A stretch of DNA of 64,000 nt from an uncultured Eubacteriales bacterium. Lineage in GTDB: Bacteria; Bacillota; Clostridia; Christensenellales; UBA1242. Position numbers and translations under genes: made by a program. Under the pieces are notes generated by a model. It worked only from the letters and a program-made list of their open reading frames with translations. It did not search any database and had not been told where the DNA came from. Positions 4,364 to 61,726 of the stretch are shown here, piece by piece (positions within the stretch are counted from its first letter, which is position 1; every line of letters begins with the position of its first letter). The stretch covers positions 468 to 64,467 of the forward strand of contig CARNVA010000004.1 of the NCBI GenBank assembly GCA_949031345.1, read 5' to 3'.

Positions 4364-7300
4364 TTACAATGCTGTATACCCAAGCTCTGCAAGTTTTTCC
4401 ATTGTTAAGTTTCCTCCGCTGCTGCTTATCCATGAAAACCCTTTTGGCAATGGTTGATCGTTTACTGCCAGTGTCCAGTTTGCAAATGGGTTTGTTTCGC
4501 TGCTATGGGTCACATACTTCTTTACTATGTTGTCGTTATCCTTGTTCTGTATATACAAGCTGCTCTTGATTGTTCCGCTTCCCTTTGTAATGGCATAGTT
4601 TGTTGTAGAGTTTGCAAAGCAGTCAATTACGCTTCCGCCGTTTAAGTTGCCTGTAAGAAGGCCTGTATTACTTCCTCCTGTTACGCTTCCAATAAAACCA
4701 CATGATTGCAAGGTTATTCCGCTTGTTGTTGTTTGGCCGAGTATTCCTCCACAGTCTGCATTTGATGCCGACGCTGTTACGCTGCCCTTCATATAGCAGT
4801 TTTCAAGGCGTGTACCTGTTCCGCCATTACGCCCAAGGATTCCTCCTACATAGTCATTTCCGTTTACGCTTCCATAGTTATAGCTTGACAAAATTGATGT
4901 GCTTACTCCATAGCCTATCATTCCTACATTGTTGTGTCCTGTCACTGTTGCTCCGCTTCGGCAGTTTTCTATGCTTCCGTTGTTGAGGTTGCCGACTATC
5001 GAGCCAACATTATCATAGCCTCGGATAGTACCCGATATGATATTCACATTCTTTATCGTTGCATTTCTTGTATAACCAAACAGACCTACATTTGAATAGA
5101 GATAATAGCCAGATTCACTCTCAACTCTCGCACTTGAGGTGGTAAGATTTGTTATCAAATAACCATTGCCATCATAATTGCCTTGAAAAGCTGTCTTCTC
5201 ACTGCCTATCGGCAACCACAATCTTCCACTTAAATCTATACTTTCAGTCTGCTTAAAATACTTTCCTGCAAAAGTTATACCATTTGCCACCGCTTTTGAA
5301 ATGTACGCAAGGTCTTCCTTGCATGAAATAAAATATGGATCGTTTATTGTTCCACTTCCAGTTAGACCGCTTGAAGCATAAGTGTTCCATGTTTCATCCC
5401 ACTGCGCAAATAAGGTAATATTATTTGTAAAATTTGAAACATATTGTCTTTCATAAAATTTTGTACCACTGCCATTAGCACTTGTGTTCCAACCTTTAAA
5501 TAAATAATCATTTCTAGAAAACGCATTGCTTGTCAACTGTTTAGCAGCACTGTTGTAAGTCAATTGCATACTTTCCATGTTGCCAACTCCGCCATTTGAA
5601 TTAAAGCAAATGTTTATTGTTTTAGGCGTCCAGTGTGCATATAATGTATGATTACCCACAATCGTCACCGTTGCATTGCTTTCGATCTTACTTCCACCAC
5701 TTAAATCTGTATACCAGCCATCAAAGTCATAGCCTATTCTGTCATTAACAAGAGGCAGATGTCCATAACTCGAATTAAATTTTACATTTTTTTCGACATT
5801 ATTTCCATTCATCACCCAATCTTTCAATTCGTAAATGTAAAAACTTCCTCCGTTTGCATTGGCCGTGACTTTATAAGTGTTTGCCTCCCACACTGCATAC
5901 AAATCAACGGTAGAAGCACCAGCAGTCGTCAATTTGCTTACACTTGCTCCATCAGAATAGATTACTCCACCGTTTGCGCTTGTAGCCCATCCTTTAAATG
6001 TATATCCCGGCCGGACAAAAGTATTCCTTTGTAAAGCATGAGGTGTGCCATATGTAAACCCGCCTTGTGATGTTGTTGTATACGGAGAAAAGTTGGAATT
6101 AAACCGGACTGAATATGATATCCCTGTCCAGTGCGCGTAAATAGTGTGATCGCATGCCGTTGTCATTTTTGTAGAAGAGCTTACCACTGTTCCACCAATT
6201 GCTTCTGTATACCATCCTGTAAAATTATAGCCCGTTCTTGTAGGTGTTGGAAGTGTGTCATAAGTTGAATCATAATTGATACTTTTAGTTGCTATAGACC
6301 CACTGCCAGTCCATCCAGTTGTATATGGAATGCTTCCGTATTCGCCATTTACATCTGCAGTCACCGTGTATGAATTTGATACCCAATGTGCATATATTGT
6401 GCGGTTGCCTAAAGTTGTCACTTTTGTAGAAGATGAAACATATGTCCCGCCACTTGCTGAGGTATACCAACCTAAAAAACTATCTCCCGTTCTTGTAGGT
6501 GTTGGAAGGTGGCCATATTTGCTGTCATAATAAACCGTCTTTTTTGAAGTTAAAACACTTCCGCCATTGGGATCAAAGAGCAAATCATATTCATTTGCAG
6601 GACAATACGCATAAAAATAAGGGTTTATAGTGTAGGCTACACAATCGGCATTATTCTGATATGTCGAAAGTTTTACATTGTTTGAGTCTCTCCATTCTTG
6701 AAAATGATAACCCGTCTTAACAGAAGTTGCAGGCAAACGGTATTTCTTACCATATTCTGTTGTCACCGAACCTATATAACTGGTTGTAGTACCGACATCA
6801 GGAGAGTAATATTTGTGATAGTGCTTGGCATCTACAGATTTTGCTGACACATAAAAATCCACCTTGAATGAAACATTTCCCCAGATTCCAACAGCAAGTT
6901 GAGCATTTTTGCTACTATCGTAGTTAGCATCTGCATAACTATCAAAATTGGTTACTTTCTTCTCAAACTTCTCAAAATCACCATCCGCATATATATTTGC
7001 ATAAACATCATAATAATATGACCTAAACCCTTCAAGGTATAAGTTTACAGCACAGTCTTTATTACTGATGGCTGAGCCTGAAGTTGAGCTTGAGTTTGAT
7101 GTTGATGAAGAGTTTATGAAGGCGTGCCCCCAGTCAAAGTCTGGGTCTGGGCCATCTATGCCCTGTTTAACATTATAAGAAGCACCGGGCCCGTAAATTG
7201 AGTATGTATGTCCGTCAGAGGTGACTGATAAAGTATTCTTAGTTGCATCCAAATTGCTTTTCAACGCGCCACCACTTGCATAAAGATATATGGTCGTTCT

Positions 7301-7426
7301 TATCGTCTTTGCGTCAGTCTGTATATTTTTAAGCTGTGGCGTAAAAAGAATAAGCAATCCACATGCCAAACAAATCAAACATATAAATGAAAGTGAAAAA
7401 TATTTAAAATTTCTTTTCATTTTCAT
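4364..7426 (-). CDS. Large surface protein A: Listeria-Bacteroides (Flg_new) repeats plus a C-terminal GLUG-repeat module
   Basis: 1020-aa ORF with an N-terminal hydrophobic signal/anchor (FSLSFICLICLACGLLILF). About 5 repeats carry the G(Y/F)xFxGW(Y/N)T...(T/L)(I/L)YA(H/V)W signature. The C-terminal ~330 aa has GLUG-like units (NVGLFGY, VGSIVGN, VGGILGR, CGGILGQ). It is paralogous to 37270-40659, 49856-53407 and 58570-61593. Confidence 0.8.
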   Translation of the reverse strand: MKMKRNFKYFSLSFICLICLACGLLILFTPQLKNIQTDAKTIRTTIYLYASGGALKSNLDATKNTLSVTSDGHTYSIYGPGASYNVKQGIDGPDPDFDWGHAFINSSSTSNSSSTSGSAISNKDCAVNLYLEGFRSYYYDVYANIYADGDFEKFEKKVTNFDSYADANYDSSKNAQLAVGIWGNVSFKVDFYVSAKSVDAKHYHKYYSPDVGTTTSYIGSVTTEYGKKYRLPATSVKTGYHFQEWRDSNNVKLSTYQNNADCVAYTINPYFYAYCPANEYDLLFDPNGGSVLTSKKTVYYDSKYGHLPTPTRTGDSFLGWYTSASGGTYVSSSTKVTTLGNRTIYAHWVSNSYTVTADVNGEYGSIPYTTGWTGSGSIATKSINYDSTYDTLPTPTRTGYNFTGWYTEAIGGTVVSSSTKMTTACDHTIYAHWTGISYSVRFNSNFSPYTTTSQGGFTYGTPHALQRNTFVRPGYTFKGWATSANGGVIYSDGASVSKLTTAGASTVDLYAVWEANTYKVTANANGGSFYIYELKDWVMNGNNVEKNVKFNSSYGHLPLVNDRIGYDFDGWYTDLSGGSKIESNATVTIVGNHTLYAHWTPKTINICFNSNGGVGNMESMQLTYNSAAKQLTSNAFSRNDYLFKGWNTSANGSGTKFYERQYVSNFTNNITLFAQWDETWNTYASSGLTGSGTINDPYFISCKEDLAYISKAVANGITFAGKYFKQTESIDLSGRLWLPIGSEKTAFQGNYDGNGYLITNLTTSSARVESESGYYLYSNVGLFGYTRNATIKNVNIISGTIRGYDNVGSIVGNLNNGSIENCRSGATVTGHNNVGMIGYGVSTSILSSYNYGSVNGNDYVGGILGRNGGTGTRLENCYMKGSVTASASNADCGGILGQTTTSGITLQSCGFIGSVTGGSNTGLLTGNLNGGSVIDCFANSTTNYAITKGSGTIKSSLYIQNKDNDNIVKKYVTHSSETNPFANWTLAVNDQPLPKGFSWISSSGGNLTMEKLAELGYTAL

Positions 7427-7521: not shown

Positions 7522-7549
7522 ATTTTACCCCCCCCCGATTTATTGTCAA
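7522..7549 (-). promoter_or_regulatory. Sigma-A-type promoter with a G9 tract in the spacer (surface gene A)
   Basis: Minus strand 7549->7522 reads TTGACA ATAAATC GGGGGGGGG TAAAAT. The plus-strand C9 is at 7528-7536 and the spacer is 16 nt. The promoter lies ~95 nt upstream of the ATG at 7426. Confidence 0.7.
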
Positions 7550-8583: not shown

Positions 8584-9387
8584 TTATATTTCAATTTCGT
8601 CATCAATATTTTGATCAACCTTTTGCGTAGAAGCAAAATTATTTTCCAGCACATCAAGCGAGCAAAAACCTCTGCATTCGTTACAATTTTGAAGTTGCTC
8701 TTTTTCCGCTTTTCTAAGCCTGCTGTAGCTTATTTTGTTATCAACAGTAGGATTTACATTCATCACCTTTGCAACAGCATCAGAATGAATAACATACAAG
8801 TTTGTGCGGCTGCTGACCAAGTTTTGCTCTTCTGCAGCAACGACAGACGAAAGAATGCTGTTTACAGTACCACCAATTATGTAAATACAATCATATGCAC
8901 TTTTGATTTTATCATTCAAAATATCTTTGTTTGGATGACTGTTGAAAAGAAAATAATTTTCGTCGTAAACGCTTGTCAAATTTAAATGAGAATCAATGCT
9001 TGTCCATTGAGAAGCACAGTTTCCATACTCTTGCACCAGTTTGATATTTTCTAAAACAGCACTTATTCTGCTGTAACCACCACTTATAGAAAAATATTTA
9101 TTATTGACCTGCCCAACGCATTTGATATTCATTGGCACATATTGATCTTTTTCACCTATTGCATAAAGAAAAACAATAAGACCAGTATTTTCATTTACAA
9201 AAAGATGATTAAAATGGTTTTTGCCCATGGTCTTATCAGTATATGAAAAATCTGCATCTTTTTTAAAACCCAAAGCCTCAAGTTTTTCGACAACACCATC
9301 AAATCTTTCACTTTCATGCTTCTTCATGATTTTTTTCTTATTTTTGATTGAAGTTTCAAAAGCTTGAATTACCCAACTTTTTGCCAT
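8584..9387 (-). CDS. Hypothetical protein
   Basis: 267-aa ORF with a G-rich RBS (AGGGGGGA) 4 nt upstream of the ATG. I recognise no family. Confidence 0.5.
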   Translation of the reverse strand: MAKSWVIQAFETSIKNKKKIMKKHESERFDGVVEKLEALGFKKDADFSYTDKTMGKNHFNHLFVNENTGLIVFLYAIGEKDQYVPMNIKCVGQVNNKYFSISGGYSRISAVLENIKLVQEYGNCASQWTSIDSHLNLTSVYDENYFLFNSHPNKDILNDKIKSAYDCIYIIGGTVNSILSSVVAAEEQNLVSSRTNLYVIHSDAVAKVMNVNPTVDNKISYSRLRKAEKEQLQNCNECRGFCSLDVLENNFASTQKVDQNIDDEIEI

Positions 9388-36761: not shown

Positions 36762-37028
36762 TTATGAGCAAGCAGAAACTATCAACCCAATAAACATCAA
36801 AAATACAACAAGCCCAATCATAACGCCAAGCCCGATAAGCCAGCCTTTAATAAAAGTCTTTCGTTCATACTCATATTGTGGCAATGGATATAAAAGCAGG
36901 CCGACAATAAGCCCGATTATTCCAAGCAGAAATAAAAGTATCCCAATTCCAAGTTTTGATTGTCTTTTGAAAGAAAGACCTTTAAAATCTTCCCCATTTT
37001 GCCCATTCTTATCTTCAAAATGTTCCAA
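36762..37028 (-). CDS. Small membrane protein (paralog of 42600-42895)
   Basis: The in-frame TTG at 37026-37028 is preceded by AAGGTGGGAGAAT. The product is (M)EHFEDKNGQNGEDFKGLSFKRQSKLGIGILLFLLGIIGLIVGLLLYP...ERKTFIKGWL... The tracked ORF start (TTG at 37076) is actually the -35 hexamer. Confidence 0.55.
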   Translation of the reverse strand: MEHFEDKNGQNGEDFKGLSFKRQSKLGIGILLFLLGIIGLIVGLLLYPLPQYEYERKTFIKGWLIGLGVMIGLVVFLMFIGLIVSACS

Positions 37029-37049: not shown

Positions 37050-37076
37050 ATTATACCCCCCCCCGAAATATGTCAA
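37050..37076 (-). promoter_or_regulatory. Sigma-A-type promoter with a G9 tract in the spacer (small membrane-protein gene)
   Basis: Minus strand 37076->37050 reads TTGACA TATTTC GGGGGGGGG TATAAT. The plus-strand C9 is at 37056-37064 and the spacer is 15 nt. Confidence 0.65.
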
Positions 37077-37269: not shown

Positions 37270-40200
37270 TTAATATTGCTCAAATCCCCATTTTACAAGG
37301 TCTTCTGTTGTTATGCCTTTATTCCCTCTTGCAAGCCACGAAAGTCCATCTGGCAGCGGTTGCCCAGTATCAGTAATAATCCAAGCCGAAAAGTCACTTC
37401 CTATAAAATGCTTTTGTATGCCCTCGATTTCATAAATTGAGTTGTTTACCACAACATTTTCTATATCCATCGCACTCCAAACAGAAGATTTTGCAAAGCA
37501 GTTGTTGACAGAGCTTTTGATATCACTGTTTACTTGACCGACAATAAGCCCTAAAAAGTCGCCGCCAACAATATCACCCATATAGCCACAAGCTGCAATT
37601 CTTATTACGCTTGCGTTTGCACAACCCAAGATGCCGCCGATGTACATTTCACCAGAAATATTACTTTTTGAAAAACTATTTTCAATTGCGATGAAGTTTT
37701 CAGTTGTAATGGTGCCATTGTAAAAGCCAATTATTCCACCCAAATTATATTCGCCAGTAATATTGCCATAGTTGAAACACCCAACAACTTTAACATCCTC
37801 GCCTCTGCCTATCATTCCACAAGAGTCATAACCAACGATTTTTACTCCACTTCGGCAATTTTCAATCAAGCCTGTGTACGCAACTCCGACTAACGAGCCC
37901 ACATTTTCATAACCATAAACATTTCCAGAAACAATATTTATATTTTTAAGTATTGCACTGTTGCAAAAGCCAAACAAACCGACATTTGAATAAATTTGAT
38001 TTCCATAAGCATCAACCACATCAATAGTTTTTAAATTGCTTATTAAAAAACCTTGCCCGTCATAAACGCCCTTAAAAGCACGCTGACTATTATCTGTCCC
38101 AATTGGAAGCCAAATATTGTCTAAAAGGTCAATTGGTCTTGTTTGCTTAAAGTATTTATCACCGAAAGTTTCACCATGTTTAACTCGATATGATAAATAT
38201 GCCAAATCTTCAGCACTTGAAATTAAATATGGTGAGCTTTCATCGCCATTACCTTGAAAAGCCTCTGTTCTATTTAAAATCGGCAAATGCCAAGTTGTAT
38301 CCCATTGTGCATAAAGTGTCAAATTTGCAGTAAGATTGCTTATTGCACTGTTTTCAAGATAAATCTCACCACCATATTGCGAAGTTGACCAATGTTTAAA
38401 AGTATATCCCTCTTTAACAAAAGCATTATCTGCAAGCCTCACAAAGCCTGCATCATAGGTCACCGATTGAGAAGGCATGCTTCCACTGCCACCATTGCCA
38501 TAAAAAATTATTGAATATGTTTTTGGCCTCCAATGAGCGTAGAGAATGCTGTCTCCTGCGATATTGTATTTTCCTGTTGTATCAACTTTTGTTCCGCCAG
38601 TCGCACTTGTCCACCAACCCTCAAAGATATATTCTCCATCTTTTGTTGGCGTTGGAATATCACCATAGACTTCATCATAAGTGACCTCTTTGGTAATTTC
38701 TTCTGCAACTTCGTTTGACGAGCTTATCAAATCAAAAGCGATTTCATAATCTATATTATTACCAATAAACTTAGCACTGATTGGTGCAAAGAAATAGAAA
38801 TAAAAGACATGGCTTCCAGCACTGATATCTGAAAATATAACACGAGTGCTTCCGCTTAAATTTTTCGTGGTCCAATATGGCTTATCGTATGAAAAGCTGT
38901 CTAATTGAGTAACTCCGAAGTCCACAGCGTAAAGGTCTTTACCCGTTTTTTGTTTAATATCAAAGCTTATAGACAAACTTATCCTAGCATCTTTGATGGC
39001 AACAAAACTTACCGAATATAAAGCGTCCCCTGCCCAAAATCCACCTTTTATCTTTCCGCCAGTTTCAGTCTTTGCTATTCCAGGGCCATAAGTCAAATTA
39101 CTTATTATTTCGTTGCTTTTGAAATCAAAGTATCCGCTATTTGCGTTTAGCGTCAATTCATAATTATTTGGTTTCCAAATTGCCTTGAAAGTTTTCGTCC
39201 CATTGGCTCCTAAATAAGGGACTTTGTCTATTCTGCAAGTTCCATCAGCGTTTGCATTATAAAAATAGTTTGTATAACCAGGTTGTGTGCATTGCCAACC
39301 AACAAGACTATAGCCTCTTTTTACAGGCACAGGGAAGCTGTATGGTCTCCTTTCTATGACGCCACTTTGACTTGAAGATGAGCTATCATTATATATGCCA
39401 CCATTATAATCAAGACAGAATGTATATTCTTGGAAAAGTGTTGAGATGGCTTTTGAAAGATTGAAGTGAAGCGCTGGTCGAACAGCAAGTGACTGATTTA
39501 CATATTCGCCGTCCCCTTGTGCTCCATTTGGAAAAAGAAGCATGCCATACAAAGAGCTGTCAAGAAATGCCGACCTGGTCCACGAGTATGTATAAACTCC
39601 ACTATTGTTTCTAGTGCCAACTGTTCCTAACAAGTCAGTTGTGCTGCCGTTGAAATTTTTTCGTTGGTTATTTGACAAACCCCACATACCAGGATGAGAG
39701 CTGCTATCACCAGTTTCTGAAATGCTAGGCAGCCATATAAAATCATTGCTCCAGGCACTATTTAATGATTTATTTGCATAATTGTAATAGCTTCTCTTGG
39801 AAGAATTATAATAAAAACGATAAGACGTTCCATTATAAGAGCCCGAATTTGGAATGCTTGATGACCAATTTTCATTCGAAGCAGAATATGCTACACCTAT
39901 ATAAGTCCTAGTATTTTGACCATACTCCTGCCATTGAACATTTGCCGGTTTAACTAAGTATTCGGTAACATTTCCGCTCACACTCGACATAGTAAACTTT
40001 GCAAAAGGGCTGTCAGTACTTTGAGAGCCTGGATTCAAAGCATTGCTTCGTGCAGCATAAGACCCACCATTATTTAAAGTAGCCGACCTTATATAACTTA
40101 GCCCATACATGTTTGATGGATTATGACTACTTGGTGCATCCTCTCTCCAATTTGCAGACCAATCTGAATATAACCCGCCATTCAACAGCCCATGATAATT

Positions 40201-40659
40201 ACCTAAATTTTTGGTTGTAGAGCCCCAAGCTTCCTGCTTGCAGTTTGTAAGCCATAAAGTAATAATGGTATTGCCCGAGGTGTCTTTTGAAAGATAAACC
40301 ACCTGCCAATCAAGTCCACCAAAACGAACAACAACATCTTGCGAAGAGGTCTTATTGTATGTCTTTGACCTTATAATTGAAGCTTTTGTTTTGGATGAGG
40401 CCATACCATCAATAGTTGCCTTATTTGAAATAGTGGTGTCGGCGCTTCCAGAAATATATTTAAGAAGGGTATTTAAATTTGTTTCTGAAAAACTGCTTCC
40501 ATTATAAAGCTCATCAACCTTAACATAGGATGTTGTATCAGTTGAGGTAATAGCCTCCGTTTGCTTGATAATTCCACTATATTGAAGCCCCATAAGAAAA
40601 CTGCATAAAGCAAAAAGGAGACAAGACATTGTTACTGAAATCCTCCTCAATAATCTCAT
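37270..40659 (-). CDS. Large surface protein B: distinct N-terminal region, Flg_new repeats and a GLUG-repeat C-terminal module
   Basis: 1129-aa ORF with a GGAGGTGAGATATG RBS and a signal/anchor. The N-terminal ~400 aa (VVVRFGGLDWQVVYLSKD...IWLPSISETG...YSWTRSA) is possibly DUF6273-like. Flg_new units are present (GYSLVGWQC, FEGWWTSATGGT...LYAHW, GYTFKHWST...LYAQW). The conserved C-terminal module is SPYLISSAEDLAYLSYRV...GLFGF...LGGIIGF...IGGILGC...QPLPDGLSW. Confidence 0.8.
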   Translation of the reverse strand: MRLLRRISVTMSCLLFALCSFLMGLQYSGIIKQTEAITSTDTTSYVKVDELYNGSSFSETNLNTLLKYISGSADTTISNKATIDGMASSKTKASIIRSKTYNKTSSQDVVVRFGGLDWQVVYLSKDTSGNTIITLWLTNCKQEAWGSTTKNLGNYHGLLNGGLYSDWSANWREDAPSSHNPSNMYGLSYIRSATLNNGGSYAARSNALNPGSQSTDSPFAKFTMSSVSGNVTEYLVKPANVQWQEYGQNTRTYIGVAYSASNENWSSSIPNSGSYNGTSYRFYYNSSKRSYYNYANKSLNSAWSNDFIWLPSISETGDSSSHPGMWGLSNNQRKNFNGSTTDLLGTVGTRNNSGVYTYSWTRSAFLDSSLYGMLLFPNGAQGDGEYVNQSLAVRPALHFNLSKAISTLFQEYTFCLDYNGGIYNDSSSSSQSGVIERRPYSFPVPVKRGYSLVGWQCTQPGYTNYFYNANADGTCRIDKVPYLGANGTKTFKAIWKPNNYELTLNANSGYFDFKSNEIISNLTYGPGIAKTETGGKIKGGFWAGDALYSVSFVAIKDARISLSISFDIKQKTGKDLYAVDFGVTQLDSFSYDKPYWTTKNLSGSTRVIFSDISAGSHVFYFYFFAPISAKFIGNNIDYEIAFDLISSSNEVAEEITKEVTYDEVYGDIPTPTKDGEYIFEGWWTSATGGTKVDTTGKYNIAGDSILYAHWRPKTYSIIFYGNGGSGSMPSQSVTYDAGFVRLADNAFVKEGYTFKHWSTSQYGGEIYLENSAISNLTANLTLYAQWDTTWHLPILNRTEAFQGNGDESSPYLISSAEDLAYLSYRVKHGETFGDKYFKQTRPIDLLDNIWLPIGTDNSQRAFKGVYDGQGFLISNLKTIDVVDAYGNQIYSNVGLFGFCNSAILKNINIVSGNVYGYENVGSLVGVAYTGLIENCRSGVKIVGYDSCGMIGRGEDVKVVGCFNYGNITGEYNLGGIIGFYNGTITTENFIAIENSFSKSNISGEMYIGGILGCANASVIRIAACGYMGDIVGGDFLGLIVGQVNSDIKSSVNNCFAKSSVWSAMDIENVVVNNSIYEIEGIQKHFIGSDFSAWIITDTGQPLPDGLSWLARGNKGITTEDLVKWGFEQY

Positions 40660-40810: not shown

Positions 40811-40839
40811 ATTTTACCCCCCCCGGTAAATTTTGTCAA
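40811..40839 (-). promoter_or_regulatory. Sigma-A-type promoter with a G8 tract in the spacer (surface gene B)
   Basis: Minus strand 40839->40811 reads TTGACA AAATTTACC GGGGGGGG TAAAAT. The plus-strand C8 is at 40817-40824 and the spacer is 17 nt. Confidence 0.7.
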
Positions 40840-40891: not shown

Positions 40892-42292
40892 TTATATTGA
40901 TTTTACTCTTTCTAAAATATCTCTTGCTGAGACAAGACCGGTGGCTGCCGCGACAACAATGTTTCCTGCCTTACCAGCACCATCTCCAATGAAATAAAGA
41001 TTTTTTGTCAAACACTTAAACTTATTATCTGTTTCAATTTCATTGCTGAAGAATTTAATTTCTGGACCATACAACAGTGTCTCATCATTATTCACACCTG
41101 GGATAATCTTATCAAGTTCTTCCAGTCCCTCTAAAATATTTTTTATAATTCTATATGGAAGCACCAGCGCAAGGTCTCCAGCAACGCAATCTTTAAGTGT
41201 TGGCTCAATGAAACCTTTGTTAAGCCTGTGCCATTCACTTCTTCTTCCACATCTTAAATCTCTCAGACACTGAATAATAGGCTTTTTGTCACCAAGAACA
41301 TTGGCTATTCTTGCAATTGACTCACCAAATTGCCTTGTATTTGTCACCGGCTGAGTAAGATTAACCTTGCAAATGAAAGCGAAGTTTGAATTGTTTGATT
41401 TTACATCTTTCAATGCGTGACCGTTGACGCAAATATAACCATAGTAATTTTCTTTTGTAACATATCCGCCAGGATTTGTGCAGAATGTCCTTATCTCATC
41501 ACCATAAGTTTTTGTCTTTATAAATATAGTTGGGTCATATATGACATCAGTGATTTTTTTCAAGACTTCCTTTCTTGTCTCCACCCTAACGCCAATCTCT
41601 ATGCTTTGAGAATTGTAAGGGATGTTATGCTTGTCCAAAAAGCCTTGCATCCAGCCAGCACCCGTTCTTCCAGGGGCAATTGTCACAAACTTTGCCAAAA
41701 AACTGTCATCTTTGCCAGCAAGCTTGAAGATGACTTTATTGTCATTTCCTTCATCTTCAATATCAATTACATCACAGTCTTCAAGAATTGTCACGCCTTT
41801 ATTTTCTAAATATTCAGTAAAATTTTCAATGTATGACGGAAGTTTGTCTGAGCCTAAATGTTTTTGCTTAATTAAAAGAAGTCTTGCACCTTTAAGTGTA
41901 ACATTTTCTTTAATTCTTTCGCTTTCTTCGCTGCTTTTTGGATAAACTTCGGCATCCATTCCAAACTTATTAAAGATTTCTTCCGTTTCATCAATAAGTT
42001 TATAAGCCTCTTCCTGCCCCATATACTTAAACAAATCGCTTTTTCCAAGCTTTGGAATAAAATTTAATTTACCATCTGAAAAAGTACCTGCACCGCCATA
42101 ACCAGATAAAATTTGACAAGGATTGCAATTAAAACATTTGCCTGTCTTTTTCATAGGACAAACTCTGTTTCTTGCCCTTTTTCCCTTGTCAAGAAGACAA
42201 ATCTTCAAAGCGGGATTATTTTCAATCAATTCATAAGCACAAAACAGACCTGCAGGCCCTGCGCCAACTATTACAACATCAAATTTTTCCAT
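40892..42292 (-). CDS. FAD-dependent oxidoreductase (COG2509-like)
   Basis: FDVVIVGAGPAGLFCAYEL dinucleotide-binding motif. 466 aa, with a C-terminal GDGAGKAGNIVVAAATG. Confidence 0.75.
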   Translation of the reverse strand: MEKFDVVIVGAGPAGLFCAYELIENNPALKICLLDKGKRARNRVCPMKKTGKCFNCNPCQILSGYGGAGTFSDGKLNFIPKLGKSDLFKYMGQEEAYKLIDETEEIFNKFGMDAEVYPKSSEESERIKENVTLKGARLLLIKQKHLGSDKLPSYIENFTEYLENKGVTILEDCDVIDIEDEGNDNKVIFKLAGKDDSFLAKFVTIAPGRTGAGWMQGFLDKHNIPYNSQSIEIGVRVETRKEVLKKITDVIYDPTIFIKTKTYGDEIRTFCTNPGGYVTKENYYGYICVNGHALKDVKSNNSNFAFICKVNLTQPVTNTRQFGESIARIANVLGDKKPIIQCLRDLRCGRRSEWHRLNKGFIEPTLKDCVAGDLALVLPYRIIKNILEGLEELDKIIPGVNNDETLLYGPEIKFFSNEIETDNKFKCLTKNLYFIGDGAGKAGNIVVAAATGLVSARDILERVKSI

Positions 42293-42599: not shown

Positions 42600-42895
42600 T
42601 TAACAAATAAACATTAAGCTTGCAGCCGCACTAAGCACTGTAGCATAAAGAATAATAACGATAACTACATACACAGCGAGTGAAACGAAGAAGCACCAAA
42701 GCCATCCTTTAAGGAAAGTCTTGCGTTCTAAAGAGCCGTCTTTATAAAGCAAAAGACCAATAATAAGCCCAATAAGCCCAATAAAGCCACACAAAACACC
42801 AATACCAACTTTAGAGGCCCCCCATTAGTGTTGCCTTGGTTTTGAACATTGTTTGTGTTGTTGTCACTGTATTGATTGTTGTTTTGTTCTTCCAT
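42600..42895 (-). pseudogene. Small membrane protein (paralog of 36762-37028) with its frame broken at a G6 run
   Basis: ATG at 42895 after AAGGAGG gives MEEQNNNQYSDNNTNNVQNQGNTNGG, then runs out of frame at C6 (42818-42823). G7 would fuse it to ...ASKVGIGVLCGFIGLIGLIIGLLLYKDGSLERKTFLKGWL... (tracked ORF 42600-42794). Confidence 0.65.
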
Positions 42896-49855: not shown

Positions 49856-52800
49856 TTACATTTGATTAAATCCAAGCTCAGTCAATTTTTCAATGGTAAG
49901 TTTTTCTCCGCCTTCGCCAAGCCAAGCTAAGCCTTTTGGAAGAGGTTGACCATTCTCTAAAATAGACCAATTTTCAAAAGGATTTTCCAAAGTGCTTATT
50001 TTGTAATATTTTTTCTCTGAGGATCCCCCTTTATTTTCTATAATTAAAGTGCTTTTTATAGAAAATGAAGATCGAGAAAATGGCAGAAAAGCTGAAGCAA
50101 AAGCAAAGCAATCCACAACTTCACCATCCATTCTTCCACAGAATTGACCTGCCCCGCTTCCTCCTTGCACTGTTCCCAGCACACCACAACTTCTAATAAT
50201 ATTGCCAGTTGTATTGTCAGCATTACCAAGAATGCCTCCACTATTAGAATAATTTGCGGCAGCTTTAATAAACGCATCAACAAAACAATTTTCAATTACA
50301 GATTTCTCTTTTGAAATTGCGCCAGCTATTCCCCCAACACTATTCAAACCTGTCAAATTTCCATAATTTAAACAAGAAGATACTGTAAAGCCTGAAACTG
50401 CGCCAAACATTCCACAATATGCATATCCATTTACATTCACACTGCTTTTGCAATTTATCGCAGCTCCTGTATCAGAATATCCTGTTATCGCCCCTGAATA
50501 ATACTGCCCAAAGACATTTCCTTTTACAAGGTTGATATTTTTTAACACTGCACCTTTGCTGAAACCAAAAAGACCAACATAGTTGTAAAGATAGATTTCA
50601 CCCAAAGCCATATAATAAGTCTGAACAAGTCTCATATTTAAAATCGGAAAGCCCTGCCCATCATAAATTCCTTGAAAGCTGTTTCCAGTATTCGTCGCGC
50701 TGACAGTCGAGCCGCCAATTGGTCGCCATAAATTGTATCCAAGCTCAATAGGTGCGGTCTGCTTAAAATATTTGCCAGCAAAAGTCACTCCTTCTTCAAC
50801 TCTCTTTGAAATATAAGCCAAATCCTCAGCACTTGCAATCAAGTATGGATTTTCTGCGCTGCCTTGATTTTCAGTCTGGCTTGCTTGAAGTGTATTTGAC
50901 GCAAAAATGTTCCAAGTCTCCTGCCACTCTGCCCTCAATTCAAACAATCGGTCACTGCTGTCAACAACGCTGCTTGGCAGTGTGCTTATTGTCGCTCCGT
51001 CATAATAAGCTTTGCCATTGTTTGTCCAATTTCTAAACAAATATCCTGTTTTTAAATATGAAATGGTTGGCAAAGTCAAACTTGTGCCATAGGTGTAAAC
51101 CCTGTCTTGCATCTGTCCTGAGGTATGCCCATTGCCATTAAATCTGATGGTATATTGTTTTGGCGTCCACTTAGCATACAAGGTAAATGATGACAAATAG
51201 CTTGTATATGGGCTGCTTGAAATGCTATTCAAAACCTTTCTTTCTGAAAGCGGCGCCCCTTCATTATCTTGCAAACTTTCACCATTTTCAAATTCGACTC
51301 CGCCTCCTAAAGACTTTGCCCAGCCTACAAAATCATAACCCGTGCGAGTAAACTCATTGTTTTTAATCTCTTGGCCGTTGCCATAAACGCAACTTTGACT
51401 GGTCATGCTTCCATTTCCGCCATTTGCATTAAAATTTATTGTATAAGGCCTTCCACTCCAAACTGCATACAAATCGAATACTTCATTCTCATTCGACCTC
51501 AAGTTTGAAACGCTTTGCCCTGGATTATAGACCTTGGTTTGTCCAGCACTGCTTGTATCCCATCCAAGCAAGGTAAACCCATGCCGGACAAACTCATTCG
51601 CTTTAAGGTTTTGCGACTGATTGTATGTAAATTGCTGTGATATGGATTTTTTCCCGTCACCCGTGAGAATGTCTCCACCAGCACTGTTTTTTCCGCCATG
51701 AAAGGTTACACTATATTTAATAGGCGTCCAATGCGCATAAATTGTGTGATTATTAGCTATATTCAAAATCGTAGAAGTAGAAATCTTTGTTCCGCCCGTC
51801 TGCGCTGTAAACCATCCGTCAAATTTATATCCTGTTCTGCTTACAGAAGGAAGATATTGATAGGTTTCTCCAAAGATTACATTTCTTATGCAACCTTCAC
51901 CAGAAATTACCCAGCCGGTAGTGGAAGTAAAACTTCCGCCATTTGCATCCGCTGTAGCCAGATATGTCATTGGTGCCCATTGCGCATAAAGCGTCACATT
52001 GCCAATTATATCATACTTTTTTATTGCTTGACCGTTCTCATTATAATATTGGGTCCCGCCCCTTCCAGAACTAGTATAATAACCTTTGAATCTATATCCA
52101 GTTTTTACAGGAATTTTCACAGTGTTCATTTCCTTGCCAAGCCAAACATTGCAAGAACTATCACTTGAGTTTTGAAAACTGCCACCATCCGCATTAAAAC
52201 TTGCAGTATATTTTATTTCATCAAGCTCACCATTTGTATAGTAATCTCTATATCTTCCAGAAACATAAGATACATCAGAATAAAGCGTGCCTCTGCCACC
52301 CTTACTTCCTGTTGCGCCACCAATTCCACCGGTGGCTTGACTTAATACATCATTGCAATAAGTATCATAGTAGGCAGATTCTCCACTAGAACCACCAATT
52401 AACCCGGTACCACCGGAGCCACCAGCTCCACCGCTATATTTATATCCCTTTCTAGAAGTATAGGTGCCACCAGCACCTCCGCCGCCTCCGCCGCCTCCGG
52501 CACCTGCGCCACCACCAATTGCATCAGCATTAACAGAACCTGCGCCACCACCGCCGCCTGCTCCGCCTCCGCCAGAGGCGTAATAATTTTTCCAACCAGA
52601 ACCAGCATCATTTGCTGTTCCTCCAGCGCTGCCACCACTGCCACCTTTAAAATTTTGTTCTCTTCCACCAGCAGTTGCAATTACTGTAACTCCACCAAAG
52701 ACATACAGGTCACCCATTGCAGAGCCGTCACCGCCTTTATATCCATTTTTTCCGAAACCGCCCTGCGCGTCATATTGATCACCATATTCACATTCTTTTG

Positions 52801-53407
52801 TCGCACATACACCACCAGAGCCACCATAACCGCCAGAGCCGCCATAGCCACCAATTCCTGCGCCAGCACCTGAGCCTCCTCTGCCTCCGTCGCCACCAGT
52901 ACCACCTCTGTACTTGTTGTCACTAATTGAAAGATAACCATTATATCCACTATCTCCATTACCGCCGCTTCCCGCATTTCCACCAGTGGCTTTTAAAGAT
53001 CCTTCACCTACGACTATCAGTCTCTTTCCATAATGCAATGAAATTCCTGCCTCGCCAACACTAGCGGTTACGGTCACTGTAATATTTTTTGGTATATATA
53101 AAACAACAGTGCCGCTCACACTTGCTCCATAAGACATAGTCACATTACTAATTGCTTTATAGACAGTATCTGAATAAAAGTATTGCTTATTACTAAAAGT
53201 GCCATTCATTGTAATACACTTTGTAAAACCACTACTCGCATTAGCGACTTTTTCTTCTTCCAAATTTTTATACGAGGTCACAACTGAAAAATAAAATATA
53301 AAAAACGCAAGGCAAATAAAAAGACAAGAAAGATAAATCTTTCTCATTTCAGAGTTATTCTTTTTATGACTTATTTCATTCTTTAAACTTTTATTAAACT
53401 TTGCCAA
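49856..53407 (-). CDS. Large surface protein C: Gly-rich N-terminal region, Flg_new repeats and a GLUG-repeat C-terminal module
   Basis: 1183-aa ORF with a TTG start after GGAGG and a TM anchor (IYLSCLFICLAFFIFYFSVV). A ~230-aa glycine-rich region is followed by Flg_new units (GYRFKGYYTS, GYKFDGWFTAQTGGT...IYAHW, GFTLLGWDT, GYDFVGWAK, GYLFRNWT). The conserved C-terminal module is NPYLIASAEDLAYISKRV...GLFGF...VGGIAGA...SGGILGN...QPLPKGLAW. Confidence 0.8.
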   Translation of the reverse strand: MAKFNKSLKNEISHKKNNSEMRKIYLSCLFICLAFFIFYFSVVTSYKNLEEEKVANASSGFTKCITMNGTFSNKQYFYSDTVYKAISNVTMSYGASVSGTVVLYIPKNITVTVTASVGEAGISLHYGKRLIVVGEGSLKATGGNAGSGGNGDSGYNGYLSISDNKYRGGTGGDGGRGGSGAGAGIGGYGGSGGYGGSGGVCATKECEYGDQYDAQGGFGKNGYKGGDGSAMGDLYVFGGVTVIATAGGREQNFKGGSGGSAGGTANDAGSGWKNYYASGGGGAGGGGGAGSVNADAIGGGAGAGGGGGGGGAGGTYTSRKGYKYSGGAGGSGGTGLIGGSSGESAYYDTYCNDVLSQATGGIGGATGSKGGRGTLYSDVSYVSGRYRDYYTNGELDEIKYTASFNADGGSFQNSSDSSCNVWLGKEMNTVKIPVKTGYRFKGYYTSSGRGGTQYYNENGQAIKKYDIIGNVTLYAQWAPMTYLATADANGGSFTSTTGWVISGEGCIRNVIFGETYQYLPSVSRTGYKFDGWFTAQTGGTKISTSTILNIANNHTIYAHWTPIKYSVTFHGGKNSAGGDILTGDGKKSISQQFTYNQSQNLKANEFVRHGFTLLGWDTSSAGQTKVYNPGQSVSNLRSNENEVFDLYAVWSGRPYTINFNANGGNGSMTSQSCVYGNGQEIKNNEFTRTGYDFVGWAKSLGGGVEFENGESLQDNEGAPLSERKVLNSISSSPYTSYLSSFTLYAKWTPKQYTIRFNGNGHTSGQMQDRVYTYGTSLTLPTISYLKTGYLFRNWTNNGKAYYDGATISTLPSSVVDSSDRLFELRAEWQETWNIFASNTLQASQTENQGSAENPYLIASAEDLAYISKRVEEGVTFAGKYFKQTAPIELGYNLWRPIGGSTVSATNTGNSFQGIYDGQGFPILNMRLVQTYYMALGEIYLYNYVGLFGFSKGAVLKNINLVKGNVFGQYYSGAITGYSDTGAAINCKSSVNVNGYAYCGMFGAVSGFTVSSCLNYGNLTGLNSVGGIAGAISKEKSVIENCFVDAFIKAAANYSNSGGILGNADNTTGNIIRSCGVLGTVQGGSGAGQFCGRMDGEVVDCFAFASAFLPFSRSSFSIKSTLIIENKGGSSEKKYYKISTLENPFENWSILENGQPLPKGLAWLGEGGEKLTIEKLTELGFNQM
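52300..52990 (-). repeat. Low-complexity GGN-rich coding region (glycine-rich domain of protein C)
   Basis: The plus strand is dominated by imperfect ccacc/gccgcc/accagc units and encodes GGTGGDGGRGGSGAGAGIGGYGGSGGYGGSGG...GGGGAGGGGGAGS...GGGAGAGGGGGGGGAGG. GC content here is locally much higher than in the rest of the window. Confidence 0.8.
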
Positions 53408-53506
53408 AAAGCCTCCATTTCAGTCAAGCTTTAAATTGTCTTTATATTTGCAAGCTTATTATTTTCATCATTTATATGCTTATTTATATCTCAAATTACA
53501 CTTTTA

Positions 53507-53534
53507 ATTTTACCCCCCCCCGACACATTGTCAA
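53507..53534 (-). promoter_or_regulatory. Sigma-A-type promoter with a G9 tract in the spacer (surface gene C)
   Basis: Minus strand 53534->53507 reads TTGACA ATGTGTC GGGGGGGGG TAAAAT. The plus-strand C9 is at 53513-53521 and the spacer is 16 nt. Confidence 0.7.
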
Positions 53535-53698
53535 GCAAATCAAAGTGACTTCATAAATAAAGCTATAAATTTATAAAATATATATTTAAAATAAAACGTC
53601 TTTTTTCAAAAATCTTACGGAATTTACAATTTTTAAAGTCTTTTTAATGATAATTGAAAAAAAGCTTCTCCATAAAAGAGAGGCTTTTTCATTTTTAA

Positions 53699-55099
53699 TT
53701 ACATTAAAAGATTGCCGTCTTCAGTTTCAATCACTTTAAGTACATTTTCAAGATTTCCATTTGCAGCATTGAAATAGAAGTAATAAGTGCCATCATCGTT
53801 GTCTGCTTCAACTTCAATACAAACAACCTCTCGATTATAATCAAGCGGTGAAAGCACCACTCTGCTTTGCACAATCTCAAATGTTGAAGGCACCTTTCCT
53901 CTTGCATCAGATTGAGACAATGTTCCGCTTGAAAGGTTTCGTTTTGTATGATTTGTAAAATAGGTTGTTGCATCATAACCTACAACAGTCCCGCTTGTAA
54001 GATTGATTTTTACTTTAACAAGGTCTGGATAAAGAATTATGCCGCTTGACTTAGGTGCTATATTAAGATAAACATCATTTTCAATGCTGTCACTCCAAAC
54101 AACCTCAGGGTTTTCAACACCGTTATCCTTGGCAAAATTCTTTGCGATATCTTTTGCAGCATCCATATCAATGCTGTTTTGTCCATCTCTGCCAGCACCA
54201 CTCACTGTCAAGATATGCCCGCCAATCTTAGTGACTTGAACATAAAGTTTTTCATTGTCAGCGTTTCTTATTCTAAAGTTGTAAGTCTCAAACCTGCCCT
54301 TAGTCTCGCCTTCAAACTCAATATCAGCAACACTTTTGAAATGTTTCTTGATATTTTCGCCAGCCTCAGATTTTGTTACAACTTCACCATAAAGACCTTT
54401 GACCTTGCTGTTTGTCACCGAGTCAGAGAAAGGTCCATCATAAATCATAGTTGGATATTCAACATCATTGTTCTTAAGAGAGGTAAGCGATCTTGTAAAG
54501 CTGTTGACATCATTATCAACATTCATTCTTCCATCTAAAATTGAATATCCGCCATTAAGCCTCTTTTCAAAATCATTGAGTTGCAATTTCAAATTGATTA
54601 CACTTTGATGAATGTTTTCAAGCGTTGTTCTCTCTTCGTCAGTAAGCGTTCCACCATTGACCATCTTTTCAGCAAGGGTTGAGGTATAACCAGAAATTTG
54701 GTTGACAAGCTTGATTGTCTCTTGAATTTCAGACTGTGAAAGAGGAAGTTGAGACACAGATATCTCTGCCTCACTTGCATTCTTTGACGCCTCTAAAAGC
54801 ATTTTTCTTTGATAAGTTGTTCCACTTCCTGACGAAATAGTTTTCGAAAGTTTGTTTTCAAGATTGTTTACGCTGTCAAGCAGATTGTAAAAATTTTGAT
54901 TATAGACATTTTCAAGGTCTGTGCGATAACTCATTGCTGCATGTTGAGAAAATCCGAGACCAACTCCAAGGCCGATAGTCGAAAGTGCAAGCACCGAGGT
55001 TGCAATTGCAAGACCAACTATCACGCCATTTTTCTTTTTGTTTTCTTTCTTTTCACTCTTCAAGGCACTTCTGCCTTCATTATTTTTTACTTCACTCAT
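53699..55099 (-). CDS. ypeB: Germination protein YpeB
   Basis: It follows sleB directly, with an N-terminal TM and then the YRTDLENVYNQNFYNLLDSVNNLENKLSK region. The C-terminus has PepSY-like repeats. I chose the start at the ATG at 55099, after AAGGGGG. Confidence 0.75.
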   Translation of the reverse strand: MSEVKNNEGRSALKSEKKENKKKNGVIVGLAIATSVLALSTIGLGVGLGFSQHAAMSYRTDLENVYNQNFYNLLDSVNNLENKLSKTISSGSGTTYQRKMLLEASKNASEAEISVSQLPLSQSEIQETIKLVNQISGYTSTLAEKMVNGGTLTDEERTTLENIHQSVINLKLQLNDFEKRLNGGYSILDGRMNVDNDVNSFTRSLTSLKNNDVEYPTMIYDGPFSDSVTNSKVKGLYGEVVTKSEAGENIKKHFKSVADIEFEGETKGRFETYNFRIRNADNEKLYVQVTKIGGHILTVSGAGRDGQNSIDMDAAKDIAKNFAKDNGVENPEVVWSDSIENDVYLNIAPKSSGIILYPDLVKVKINLTSGTVVGYDATTYFTNHTKRNLSSGTLSQSDARGKVPSTFEIVQSRVVLSPLDYNREVVCIEVEADNDDGTYYFYFNAANGNLENVLKVIETEDGNLLM

Positions 55100-58569: not shown

Positions 58570-61500
58570 TTATGCTTTTGAAAAGCCACTTTCACTTAAA
58601 TCAAATTCAACTTCAGTGCTGCCACGCCATATAAGTGCTCTTGGTAAAGGCTTTCCGTCTTCTAGCATTATCCACTGTGAAAAATCTTCTCCAACATATT
58701 TTTTAACGCCATTAAACTCAAATAAGCAATTCAATACCGTCGCTTCCCCATAATATTGCAAAACGAAGCCATCGGCATTATTCAACAATTTTGAAAAGCA
58801 GTTTTCTATCGTTCCACTTAAAACAGAATAGCCAACAAACAAGCCTCGTTTGCCACTTGCTACTTCCATATTTTCCTCAAAACAACAAGCTGAAAGTATA
58901 AAGTTTTGAGCAGCATAGCCTATCAGCCCACCACAATAGTTTGAAGCAATCAAGCTCATTTTTGACATGCAGTTTTTCATTTCAAAATTTATTCCCGAAA
59001 CTTCACCAATCAGCCCTCCAACCTTATCACCTGTCGCTGAAATGCTTCCATAACAATAGCAGTTTTCAACAGAGACATTATCTTTTACTCGGCCAATAAC
59101 ACCTCCTACTTTTGCCGAAGCTTTAATTTCTACAGACGCGGAAGAGCCCACTATAACTGCATTTTCTGCTTTGCCAACTATCGCTGCCACCTCTTCATTT
59201 CCAGAGACTTTGCCAAATAATCTGACATTTTTAATAATGACTGGATTATCTATTTTCTCACCTTCAACACGACCGAATAGTCCTTGACAATTATCATAAT
59301 AGCCATTGATAACATTTATTCCTTCTATCTTAAAACCCTGTCCATCAAAACAGCCTTTAAAAGCAAAATCCTCACTGCCAATTGGCTTCCATATATTATC
59401 ACTTAAATCAATGTTTGCTGTTTGTTTAACTTGAAATCTGGAATTATTGATTTCACATTCACTTGCAAGCCAAGCAAGCTCTTGGGCATTTGAAATGAGA
59501 TAAATTCCACCTTCATTTTTAGGTTGTTTAATATTTGATAAATGGGCCCAACTGTCTTGCCATTCTGCAGTTAAAGTCACATCTTCTGCCTTGATTATCG
59601 TATTCTCACCTGCAATAAGCCCATTCACATCAAACCAGCCCAGAAAAATCTGTCCCCTCTTGGTCGGTTTTGGCAAATATCCAAAAGCAGAATTATATTC
59701 AATATCTTTAACAGCCATTCCATTCTCAATTTTCCATCCATTCATGTTGATGGGATAACTTCCACCTTTAATGTCAAGTTTCAGTTTATAATGATTTATT
59801 TCCCAAATAGCATGGAGATTTATGATTTCGCCCTCTTTTGAGGCCAAGTTTTTCACAATCTGCTCATCATAATATAGAGGCTCTTTCGCACTTGAGTCAG
59901 TATTCCAGCCCACAAATGAATAGCCCTCTTTTGTAAAGCTGTTTGAAGAAAGAGCATTGCCTTGCTCAGAAGCGCTTTTGTAAATAAAGTTTTGATTTGG
60001 CATGGAGCCTATTCCACTATTGCCATTAAAACAAACGCTATAACTATTTGCCCGCCACTGAGCAAAGAAGGTTGCAATGACTTCATTATTGCCAAGATTT
60101 GGCATAGTTAAATATAAACTTTGGTCGGAAGAATTGGTCTGATAAATTACATCGTCAAAACTGCATCGCCAGCCCGTCAAAGTGTAACCTTCCTTCTTAG
60201 GAATTGGGAAATAATACCCCTGCCCAAACTTTAGTTTGGTTGAAGAAGAGGAAGAATTATCAGAATTGAGTCCACCGTTGAAATCAAATACAACATTATA
60301 ATCATTTTCGAGCCACTGTGCATAAATCGAGTGTGCCGATCCCTTATTCATAACAGTGCTTGAAGTCACCTCTGTGCCTCCACTTGAAGCAAAATACCAG
60401 CCTTTTAAATGACAACCATCCCTTATAACCTGCGGAAAATTTCCATAATTGGTCAAATATGTAATATCTTTCTTCGCATTGTCGCCATTCTTAGTCCAAC
60501 CATTTAAGTTAGAGCCCAGCTTGCCTCCATTGACATTTGCAGTGACCGCATAACTACCTTTTTCCCATTGAGCATAAATGTAAGCAAGCGTTTCAAACCC
60601 AAAAGTTGTTGACACAGTAACCTCTGTACCTCCACTCGCTTCAGTAAACCAACCTTTCAAGACATAACCAGTCCTTGACACAATTGGAAAGCTTCCTAAA
60701 GGATTGCCATAGGCTATATTTTTTGTAATAGAACTTGCAATTTGATTCCAACCATTTGCAGAAACAAGAGTGCCTCCATTTGTATAAGCACTTACCGAAC
60801 AAGTTTGAGCTCTCCACTGTGCATAAAGAGTCATAGACGGCGGTGCAACTTTTAATGCAGCACCACTGCTGCTGAAATAATCATCGCCTCTGCCATCAGC
60901 TCGAGAGTTATAGCCCAAAAATGTATGTCCAGTTTTAGTAGGACAGGTTATTGATGACATGCTCATCCCATAACTTACTCGTTTGCTTGATGTTCCACCC
61001 GACCCGCCTTGCTTATCAAAGGTAAGCGTCACACCACTTGCCACCGAATAAAACAAAGGTGTTATAATTATTTCTTCGTCAAAAGAGGCCGAATTCGAAT
61101 AATTGTTTACATCTGTTTGCGACATTCTCCAATATGTTTCTGAGCTTATTTTAGTCCAACCATAATCGCTATTGTTTTCATACCAGCCTGCAAATTTAAC
61201 TACACTTGAAGATGAAAGATAAAAACTTAAGGCTATTGGATAATAATCTGTGGTAGAATTAAGAGACAGATTATGAGGCAAACTATAAACTATTTCATCA
61301 TAAGAATCGTCTGAATAGAGATACATGCTTGGTCGATTGATATACACTTTTTCTTGGTCGCTTGAAGATATATCTTTTACACTTATTCTATTTGACGATG
61401 GGGCACTTGTTGAAGCATATAGTCTTGGCCCTGCCACTTTTAAAGTGTAATTTGCAGCACTGACAGAATTTTCGCTTATTTTAGCAATCTTGTCATAAAA

Positions 61501-61593
61501 AAGCTTTCCCATTCCAGATATGGTGAATATCCCCATGAGGCACAAAAATATTGCAATGAAAGATAATACTATAAAGTTTAAATTCTTTTTCAT
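58570..61593 (-). CDS. Large surface protein D: Flg_new repeats and a divergent GLUG-repeat C-terminal module
   Basis: 1007-aa ORF with a signal/anchor (FIVLSFIAIFLCLMGIF). Flg_new units are present (GHTFLGYNS...LYAQW, GYVLKGWFTEASGGT...IYAQW, GCHLKGWYFASSGGT, GYTLTGWRC, GYSFVGWNT, GQIFLGWFD). The C-terminal module is IYLISNAQELAWLA...GLFGR...VGGVIGR...VGGLIGE...CGGLIGY...KPLPRALIW. Confidence 0.8.
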   Translation of the reverse strand: MKKNLNFIVLSFIAIFLCLMGIFTISGMGKLFYDKIAKISENSVSAANYTLKVAGPRLYASTSAPSSNRISVKDISSSDQEKVYINRPSMYLYSDDSYDEIVYSLPHNLSLNSTTDYYPIALSFYLSSSSVVKFAGWYENNSDYGWTKISSETYWRMSQTDVNNYSNSASFDEEIIITPLFYSVASGVTLTFDKQGGSGGTSSKRVSYGMSMSSITCPTKTGHTFLGYNSRADGRGDDYFSSSGAALKVAPPSMTLYAQWRAQTCSVSAYTNGGTLVSANGWNQIASSITKNIAYGNPLGSFPIVSRTGYVLKGWFTEASGGTEVTVSTTFGFETLAYIYAQWEKGSYAVTANVNGGKLGSNLNGWTKNGDNAKKDITYLTNYGNFPQVIRDGCHLKGWYFASSGGTEVTSSTVMNKGSAHSIYAQWLENDYNVVFDFNGGLNSDNSSSSSTKLKFGQGYYFPIPKKEGYTLTGWRCSFDDVIYQTNSSDQSLYLTMPNLGNNEVIATFFAQWRANSYSVCFNGNSGIGSMPNQNFIYKSASEQGNALSSNSFTKEGYSFVGWNTDSSAKEPLYYDEQIVKNLASKEGEIINLHAIWEINHYKLKLDIKGGSYPINMNGWKIENGMAVKDIEYNSAFGYLPKPTKRGQIFLGWFDVNGLIAGENTIIKAEDVTLTAEWQDSWAHLSNIKQPKNEGGIYLISNAQELAWLASECEINNSRFQVKQTANIDLSDNIWKPIGSEDFAFKGCFDGQGFKIEGINVINGYYDNCQGLFGRVEGEKIDNPVIIKNVRLFGKVSGNEEVAAIVGKAENAVIVGSSASVEIKASAKVGGVIGRVKDNVSVENCYCYGSISATGDKVGGLIGEVSGINFEMKNCMSKMSLIASNYCGGLIGYAAQNFILSACCFEENMEVASGKRGLFVGYSVLSGTIENCFSKLLNNADGFVLQYYGEATVLNCLFEFNGVKKYVGEDFSQWIMLEDGKPLPRALIWRGSTEVEFDLSESGFSKA

Positions 61594-61697: not shown

Positions 61698-61726
61698 ATT
61701 TTATAATTAAACAAGCGTTTCGTCAA
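61698..61726 (-). promoter_or_regulatory. Homologous promoter of surface gene D without a homopolymer tract
   Basis: Minus strand 61726->61698 reads TTGACG AAACGCTTGTTTAATTA TAAAAT, with a 17-nt spacer. It has the same TAAAATTAAA -10 context as genes A and C. Confidence 0.55.

Follow-up and report, generated by a model that had tools for sequence, protein, structure and literature searches.

The promoter of gene D carries a run of nine G residues between its -35 and -10 hexamers, and we consider it probable that this run is a hypermutable homopolymer within a SigA-type promoter, forming a contingency locus of the porA/TP0126 type in which spacer length would tune transcription. Strain variation, retention of the tract across species and the dissimilar flanks of the paralogous promoters support what a preliminary description of this DNA had proposed, namely a length-variable spacer tract under selection. 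The position of the homopolymer, its enrichment and its variation in length between strains, the last observed at the level of assemblies, are those of the porA/TP0126 type. Throughout, the window refers to the whole stretch of 64,000 nucleotides that was analyzed.

A direct read of the minus strand from 53534 to 53507 gives TTGACA ATGTGTC GGGGGGGGG TAAAAT, and the coordinates, sequence and 16-nt spacer (7 + 9 nt) of the preliminary description proved exact. The elements of the locus are as follows.

53529..53534, minus strand: -35 hexamer TTGACA of the gene D promoter (direct read)
53522..53528, minus strand: non-repeat portion of the spacer, ATGTGTC (direct read)
53513..53521, minus strand: G9 homopolymer tract, the 3' portion of the spacer, adjoining the -10 hexamer (C9 on the plus strand)
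53507..53512, minus strand: -10 hexamer TAAAAT (direct read and consensus scan)
49856..53407, minus strand: gene D, 1183 aa, with a TTG start at 53407 preceded by GGAGG
53659..53689, minus strand: hairpin and T-run (TTTTTTT on the minus strand) that terminate the upstream ypeB gene (palindrome scan and direct read)

In a consensus scan of positions 53300-53800, this sigma-70-type promoter ranked first with 11 of 12 hexamer positions, against 9 of 12 for the other candidates on the minus strand, and it is the top promoter match between the ypeB terminator and gene D. The upstream gene, a 489-aa ORF with YPEB_N and PepSY domains, ends in a terminator that insulates gene D from read-through, and gene D therefore needs a promoter of its own. 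Rfam at gathering thresholds and ARAGORN returned zero RNA features in the whole window, which leaves the stretch from the promoter to gene D without a known leader RNA. Action of the tract at the RNA level, through reiterative transcription or an RNA G-quadruplex, was considered and rejected, because the tract lies upstream of the -10 hexamer of the sole strong promoter. A single G run is, in any case, incapable of forming an intramolecular quadruplex.

Some gene callers start gene D at an ATG located 20 codons downstream of the TTG at 53407. The protein begins with a hydrophobic anchor or signal, and contains a glycine-rich region (37% glycine), five Listeria-Bacteroides repeats (Flg_new/TIGR02543) and a conserved C-terminal portion with GGI(L/A)G-type motifs. 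This last portion may be GLUG-like, to judge from the recurrence of these motifs and from a faint PF07581 (Glug) hit in a paralog. A motif search in gene D and in the paralog at 37270..40659 found the LPXTG motif in neither protein, a domain search found no cytoplasmic enzyme domain in the gene D protein, Pfam found no LRR family in it, and a PDB sequence search returned no relative. Identification as an internalin was rejected, because the B-repeat part alone matches internalin models, with 47 bits against the InlA model (cut-off 1600) and 35 bits against the InlH model (cut-off 1050). The product is best described as a putative large exported repeat protein, presumably exposed at the surface; the word 'adhesin' used in the preliminary description is a guess from the repeat domains. 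As for the source of the DNA, SpoIIR, SleB and YpeB, together with a faint SipL hit, point to a sporulating, Clostridia-like organism.

The gene D promoter has sisters in the window, as well as a paralog promoter that lacks a tract and serves as comparator.

7522..7549, minus strand: sister tract promoter TTGACA-ATAAATC-G9-TAAAAT, 16-nt spacer, before a 1020-aa paralog (4364..7426)
40811..40839, minus strand: sister tract promoter TTGACA-AAATTTACC-G8-TAAAAT, 17-nt spacer, before a 1129-aa paralog (37270..40659)
37050..37076, minus strand: fourth tract promoter TTGACA-TATTTC-G9-TATAAT, 15-nt spacer
61698..61726, minus strand: tract-less promoter TTGACG-17 nt-TAAAATTAAAG of the fourth paralog (58570..61593)

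The three large proteins encoded behind tract promoters are paralogs with 30-37% identity, and the preliminary count of gene D as the third locus of its kind therefore holds, the term adhesin apart. The fourth tract promoter precedes not a large paralog but a gene for a small membrane protein of 88 aa (36762..37028), itself upstream of a pyruvate phosphate dikinase gene. Within the window (36% G+C), seven G/C runs of at least 6 nt are present on the plus strand; four runs reach at least 8 nt, and each of these is placed directly between a TTGACA and a TAWAAT of the minus strand. A search for TTGACA-N5-12-G7-TAWAAT matched the window 4 times, compared to a mean of 0.00 and a maximum of 0 in 100 dinucleotide-preserving shuffles. 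Tract promoters are thus over-represented, and chance does not produce them at this density. The tract-less paralog promoter has the same -10 context as the tract promoters, next to a 17-nt spacer. The preliminary description had also given TAAAATTAAA as a -10 context that the present promoter shares with those of the genes it called A and D, which was right in part only: contexts differ among the loci compared, with TAAAATTAAAT at 7522-7549, TAAAATTATG at 40811-40839, TATAATGAAA at 37050-37076 and TAAAATTAAAG at the tract-less 61698-61726.

Two observations concern the surroundings of these promoters. Upstream of the tract-less paralog, positions 61820-63826 (minus strand) encode a VirD4-like coupling protein of the CD1115 family (252 bits, cut-off 250), and the right end of the window may, given this gene, belong to a conjugative element. 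In contig 398 of SRR28005761 (1-838), the place directly upstream of the 37050-type tract promoter is taken by an rve-family transposase gene, and other strains have the 1129-aa surface-protein gene there; the tract of this contig is G8 instead of G9.

Orthologs were sought at the protein level, with each species represented by one genome. The metagenome-assembled genome CASLXJ01 encodes an ortholog of gene D (73% protein identity) and two paralogs, and G9 occupies the equivalent promoter position at all three. Intergenic DNA of the window and of CASLXJ01 is essentially unalignable (approximately 52-54% identity), and despite this divergence the block CTTGACA-NNNN-TC-G9-TAAAAT is intact between the two. 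Two tandem genes on a 398-kb JGI contig have the promoters TTGACA-ATCTGTC-G9-TAAAAT and TTGACA-TTCAATC-G9-TAAAAT, and the homolog in GCA_949387285.1 has TTGACA-ATATATC-G9-TAAAAT. The spacer flank in orthologs is thus TTCAATC, ATCTGTC or ATATATC, of which the terminal TC alone is kept. The homolog in GCA_947624415.1 is built differently, as TTGACA-ATA-G11-CGATGC-TAAAAT, with a 20-nt spacer and the tract in mid-spacer rather than against the -10 hexamer; if 17 nt is optimal, this spacer would correspond to an off-length state. The tract promoter at 37050-37076 is also conserved in the related species. An artefact of two-colour sequencing chemistry, which yields poly-G, was rejected as the source of the runs, because unique sequence flanks them on both sides and because independent assemblies and species have them in one and the same position.

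Homopolymers are also present on high-GC contigs of Eggerthellaceae metagenome-assembled genomes that encode distant homologs of the C-terminal domain. There, G7 (one contig) or G9 (another) lies within the gene, approximately 180 nt from its start, and a C9/C10 run begins in a TTGACC-like -35 element approximately 350 nt upstream of the gene's ATG.

Copies of the window loci in other strains were retrieved by exact-protein look-ups of neighboring genes, and the lengths given here are the consensus of short-read metagenome assemblies, some of low coverage.

Tract 53513-53521 (gene D): G9 in six other assemblies and G10 in GCA_948709035.1, with flanks otherwise identical
Tract 40817-40824: G8 in four strain copies, like the window, and G9 in six
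Tract 37056-37064: G8 in one strain copy and G9 in eight
Tract 7528-7536: G9 in all eight strain copies spanning the tract

The gene D tract is G9 in ERR4082856, GCA_949036025.1, GCA_948665775.1, GCA_948820505.1, ERR10610386 and ERR10610017. An alignment of 7.1 kb around gene D (8 sequences, 45 SNP columns) contains two indel events, one of 66 nt and the tract, which is the sole 1-nt indel. At 40817, lengths differ between contigs of one study that are 1-3 SNPs apart in 4.4 kb. Tract loci vary independently within a genome: in GCA_948709035.1, gene D has G10, and genes A and B have G9. Length heterogeneity among strains, which the preliminary description had singled out as the property to look for, is therefore present as G9/G10 at the gene D locus and as G8/G9 at sister loci, and the tract is not invariant among assemblies. 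Within this species, the length variants are of +/-1 alone.

Other homopolymers of the same genome vary as well. An A9 run (T9 on the plus strand, approximately 7563-7571), 14 nt upstream of the -35 hexamer at 7549, is A8 or A9, or longer still, depending on the strain. G runs are thus not the only homopolymers that vary in this organism, and, since nearby poly-A runs vary, length variation alone is no proof of function. A fifth variable G tract, C6 on the plus strand (G6 on the minus strand) at 42818-42823, lies within a small minus-strand ORF that starts at approximately 42895. Strain copies have G6, G7, G8 or G9+A at this place, and gene callers assign them a product of 99, 98 or 75 aa, or call no gene at all. 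Read in frame, the ORF encodes a small membrane protein resembling the 88-aa protein downstream of the 37050 promoter. This tract looks like a frameshift-type switch, of which the window copy (G6) appears to be out of frame. Finally, in an alignment of the window with nine strain copies, 2 of the 10 sequences have G5 in place of a G6 run (C6 on the plus strand, 9392-9397) in the ribosome-binding region just ahead of the ATG of the gene at 8584..9387 (minus strand).

It is conceivable, if unlikely, that the promoter contains the G run as a fixed element, and that slippage yields the rare variants of +/-1 as nearly neutral by-products, not as states of a selected switch. Such an element could act as a spacer of defined length and stiffness; alternatively, it could bind a regulator or, through its G at -14, form a partial extended -10. 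Indeed, G9 is the dominant length, with a 16-nt spacer, at nearly all loci with a 7-nt flank in four lineages, which looks like selection for one length and not like free switching. Moreover, the tract adjoins the -10 hexamer in 10 of the 11 loci of the clade, so that the G residues at -13 to -15 stay constant at any tract length. The G run is also always on the non-template strand: among the metagenome matches listed, described below, spacers outside the search pattern comprised 4 further G-type cases with other -10 variants and 0 of C-type, a count that hints at G on the non-template strand as a rule. A fixed element, however, has no need of an error-prone nine-base homopolymer, for which a mixed sequence would be a more stable solution. 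Furthermore, tract lengths differ between near-identical strains, orthologous promoters of the wider class span G7-G11 among the matches listed, and the downstream genes are of the kind usually under phase variation.

Sequencing or assembly errors at a homopolymer could also create apparent differences in a tract that is effectively invariant, and this we regard as quite improbable. It is true that every length was taken from metagenomes assembled from short reads, in some cases at low coverage, and that assemblers struggle at the tracts, where several contigs break: three metagenome contigs stop at, within or a few bases past the 7528 tract, and one begins 1 nt before the -35 hexamer of the 37050 promoter. 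Within-sample heterogeneity in length would break contigs at tracts just as well, and the breaks are suggestive either of such heterogeneity or of strain-variable downstream genes. Against errors, an identical G8 or G9 call is repeated in several independent samples of one study, and 1-nt indels are rare elsewhere, with zero besides the tract in the gene D alignment. The intragenic tract of the same genome, for its part, shows G6, G7, G8 and G9.

The 60-nt flanks of the gene D promoter resemble those of the other loci at the level of shuffled controls, and the tract adjoins the -10 hexamer at all four window loci; the preliminary observation that flanks differ while the position of the tract is conserved was therefore borne out. 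One exception involves the 37050 and 40811 promoters, which have an upstream terminator-like hairpin in common, with 72% identity compared to a shuffle maximum of 70%. The two similar hairpins read AAGAAATCTCCAAAAATTGGAGATTT and AAGAAATCTTCAAAAATTTGAAGATTTCTT (minus strand, 37077-37136 and 40840-40899), and their likeness suggests that these promoters share a terminator-promoter module. That all four promoters are recent copies of one cassette, spread with the paralogs and alike by common descent rather than selection, is scarcely credible: the downstream genes are paralogous and the two hairpins are indeed alike, but the gene D flanks are at shuffle level against all others, a duplication that left 30-37% protein identity is old enough for an unselected G9 to have decayed, and the tract is kept across species where intergenic DNA is down to approximately 52% identity. 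The same evidence, a tract kept between species at approximately 52-54% intergenic identity and dissimilar flanks between paralogs, upholds the earlier argument for selection on the tract rather than recent copying alone. Retention of the tract while its surroundings change is support for selection on the tract itself.

How a length-variable tract would act can be outlined from its place in the promoter. Slipped-strand mispairing during replication would add or remove one G, and each gain or loss would rotate the two hexamers relative to each other around the helix as well as shift the -35/-10 spacing (to 15, 16, 17 or 18 nt, for example). Altered spacing would alter the binding of RNA polymerase, and hence produce a heritable and reversible rise or fall in transcription. 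RNA polymerase with the primary sigma factor favors approximately 17 nt, so that tract length would set the level of transcription. With separate tracts at three paralog genes and at one small membrane-protein gene, cells would come to differ in the combination of proteins that they make. We infer that the promoter is used, that length sets expression, and that switching is fast and reversible. An optimum of 17 nt would be expected here from the tract-less paralog promoter and from the precedents of porA and TP0126. This spacing corresponds to G10 at the gene D locus and to G8 at the 40811 locus, and at the fourth locus (37050) spacers of 15 or 14 nt represent a shift away from the optimum. 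Assigning ON and OFF states from spacer length was tried and rejected, because consensus-like promoters without a tract in the window have spacers of 16 or 17 nt; G9, which gives 16 nt, may therefore be active already.

We also searched for this design in metagenomes. The gene D-type promoter itself (TTGACAATGTGTC-N5-15-TAAAATTAAAAG) had no match in the JGI/ENA metagenome collection. The generic pattern TTGACA-N5-12-G7+-TAAAAT was found in at least 120 metagenome contigs, many of them from the human gut, with a G+C content of 27% to 67% among the matches listed. These listed matches form at least 84 distinct promoter groups with tracts of G7 to G15, and more than one tract length was found in 8 of the 11 groups present in multiple copies; examples with the same flanks are G7/G9/G10 and G9/G10/G11. 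Among the same matches, a signal-peptide-like N-terminus was predicted for 37 of 62 first downstream ORFs, compared to 211 of 844 background ORFs (Fisher p = 3e-8), and a lipobox for 16 of 62 compared to 54 of 844 (p = 5e-6), where the downstream set is non-redundant, the background consists of ORFs of the same contigs, and a crude heuristic was applied equally to both sets. In one subset of listed matches, from environmental samples, the tract promoter precedes small acidic proteins without signal peptides.

These matches allow the tentative suggestion, which we put forward as possible rather than probable, of a widespread and undescribed promoter design in gut Firmicutes, consisting of TTGACA, a short flank, a non-template tract of G7-G15 and, directly adjoining it, TAAAAT as the -10 hexamer; through its length, the tract would tune and switch the expression of lipoproteins and large surface proteins. 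The density in the window is 4 promoter tracts and 1 intragenic tract per 64 kb. If the design holds true, commensal Clostridia would, much as Campylobacter or Neisseria do, possess large 'phasomes' of simple sequence repeats (SSR).

Phase variation by simple repeats is textbook knowledge for mucosal pathogens. To our knowledge, attention in gut commensals has gone almost wholly to invertible promoters and methylation. For Bifidobacterium, a G-tract switch inside a gene is described, and homopolymer switches in promoters are described for Neisseria, Treponema, Bordetella, Mycoplasma and others; among the open-access papers searched, none turned up that describes promoter switching by poly-G in gut Clostridia. 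In a 2025 review, Clostridioides appears solely in connection with inversions and invertible elements (PMC11868660). The proposed mechanism is thus of a known kind, and the host group, uncultured gut Clostridia as far as the sequence tells, appears to be new within the literature found.

If the tracts work as outlined above, an uncultured spore-former would vary several large surface proteins independently. This would affect the reading of strain-level variation in metagenomes, where homopolymer indels are usually filtered out as errors, and would bear both on the explanation of contig breaks in metagenome-assembled genomes and on the study of immune or phage pressure on commensal Firmicutes. 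The host group, the number of loci and the apparent breadth in gut metagenomes are grounds for interest despite an ordinary mechanism.

Several known systems resemble the one proposed here. In Mycoplasma hyorhinis, the vlp genes encode paralogous lipoproteins, each promoter spacer contains a poly-A tract, and ON/OFF states are combinatorial. As in the window, a family of paralogous surface proteins has a homopolymer in each promoter spacer, and the host lineage is related to Firmicutes; unlike in the window, the vlp tracts are poly-A, the hosts are wall-less pathogens and the products are lipoproteins with size variation of their own. The vlp system is listed in PMC11868660. In Bifidobacterium breve, another gut commensal, slippage in a G tract switches a surface structure, the sortase-dependent pilus (PMC9187656). 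That tract, unlike the one in the gene D promoter, is within coding sequence and acts by frameshift, and so resembles the intragenic tract at 42818-42823.

The closest precedents are promoters with poly-G between the -35 and -10 hexamers. In Treponema pallidum, transcription of TP0126, an OmpW homolog, is best at 17-nt spacing, as validated with reporters (Giacani et al. 2015, summarized in PMC7864442). As at gene D, the length of this tract varies between strains, for TP0126 also within strains, and it belongs, unlike the gene D locus, to a spirochaete pathogen. Other tpr genes of T. pallidum have poly-G elsewhere in the promoter, with other mechanisms (PMC7864442). In Neisseria meningitidis, the poly-G tract between the -35 and -10 of porA sets the level of transcription with an optimum of 17 nt (van der Ende et al. 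1995, summarized in PMC7864442), and here too the tract is inside a sigma-70-type spacer and belongs to a surface-protein gene. Whereas porA is one gene of a Gram-negative pathogen with expression levels that have been shown, the host of gene D is, from its sequence, an uncultured spore-former of Gram-positive type, in which several paralogous genes each have a tract of their own, always adjoining the -10 hexamer at the loci of the window.
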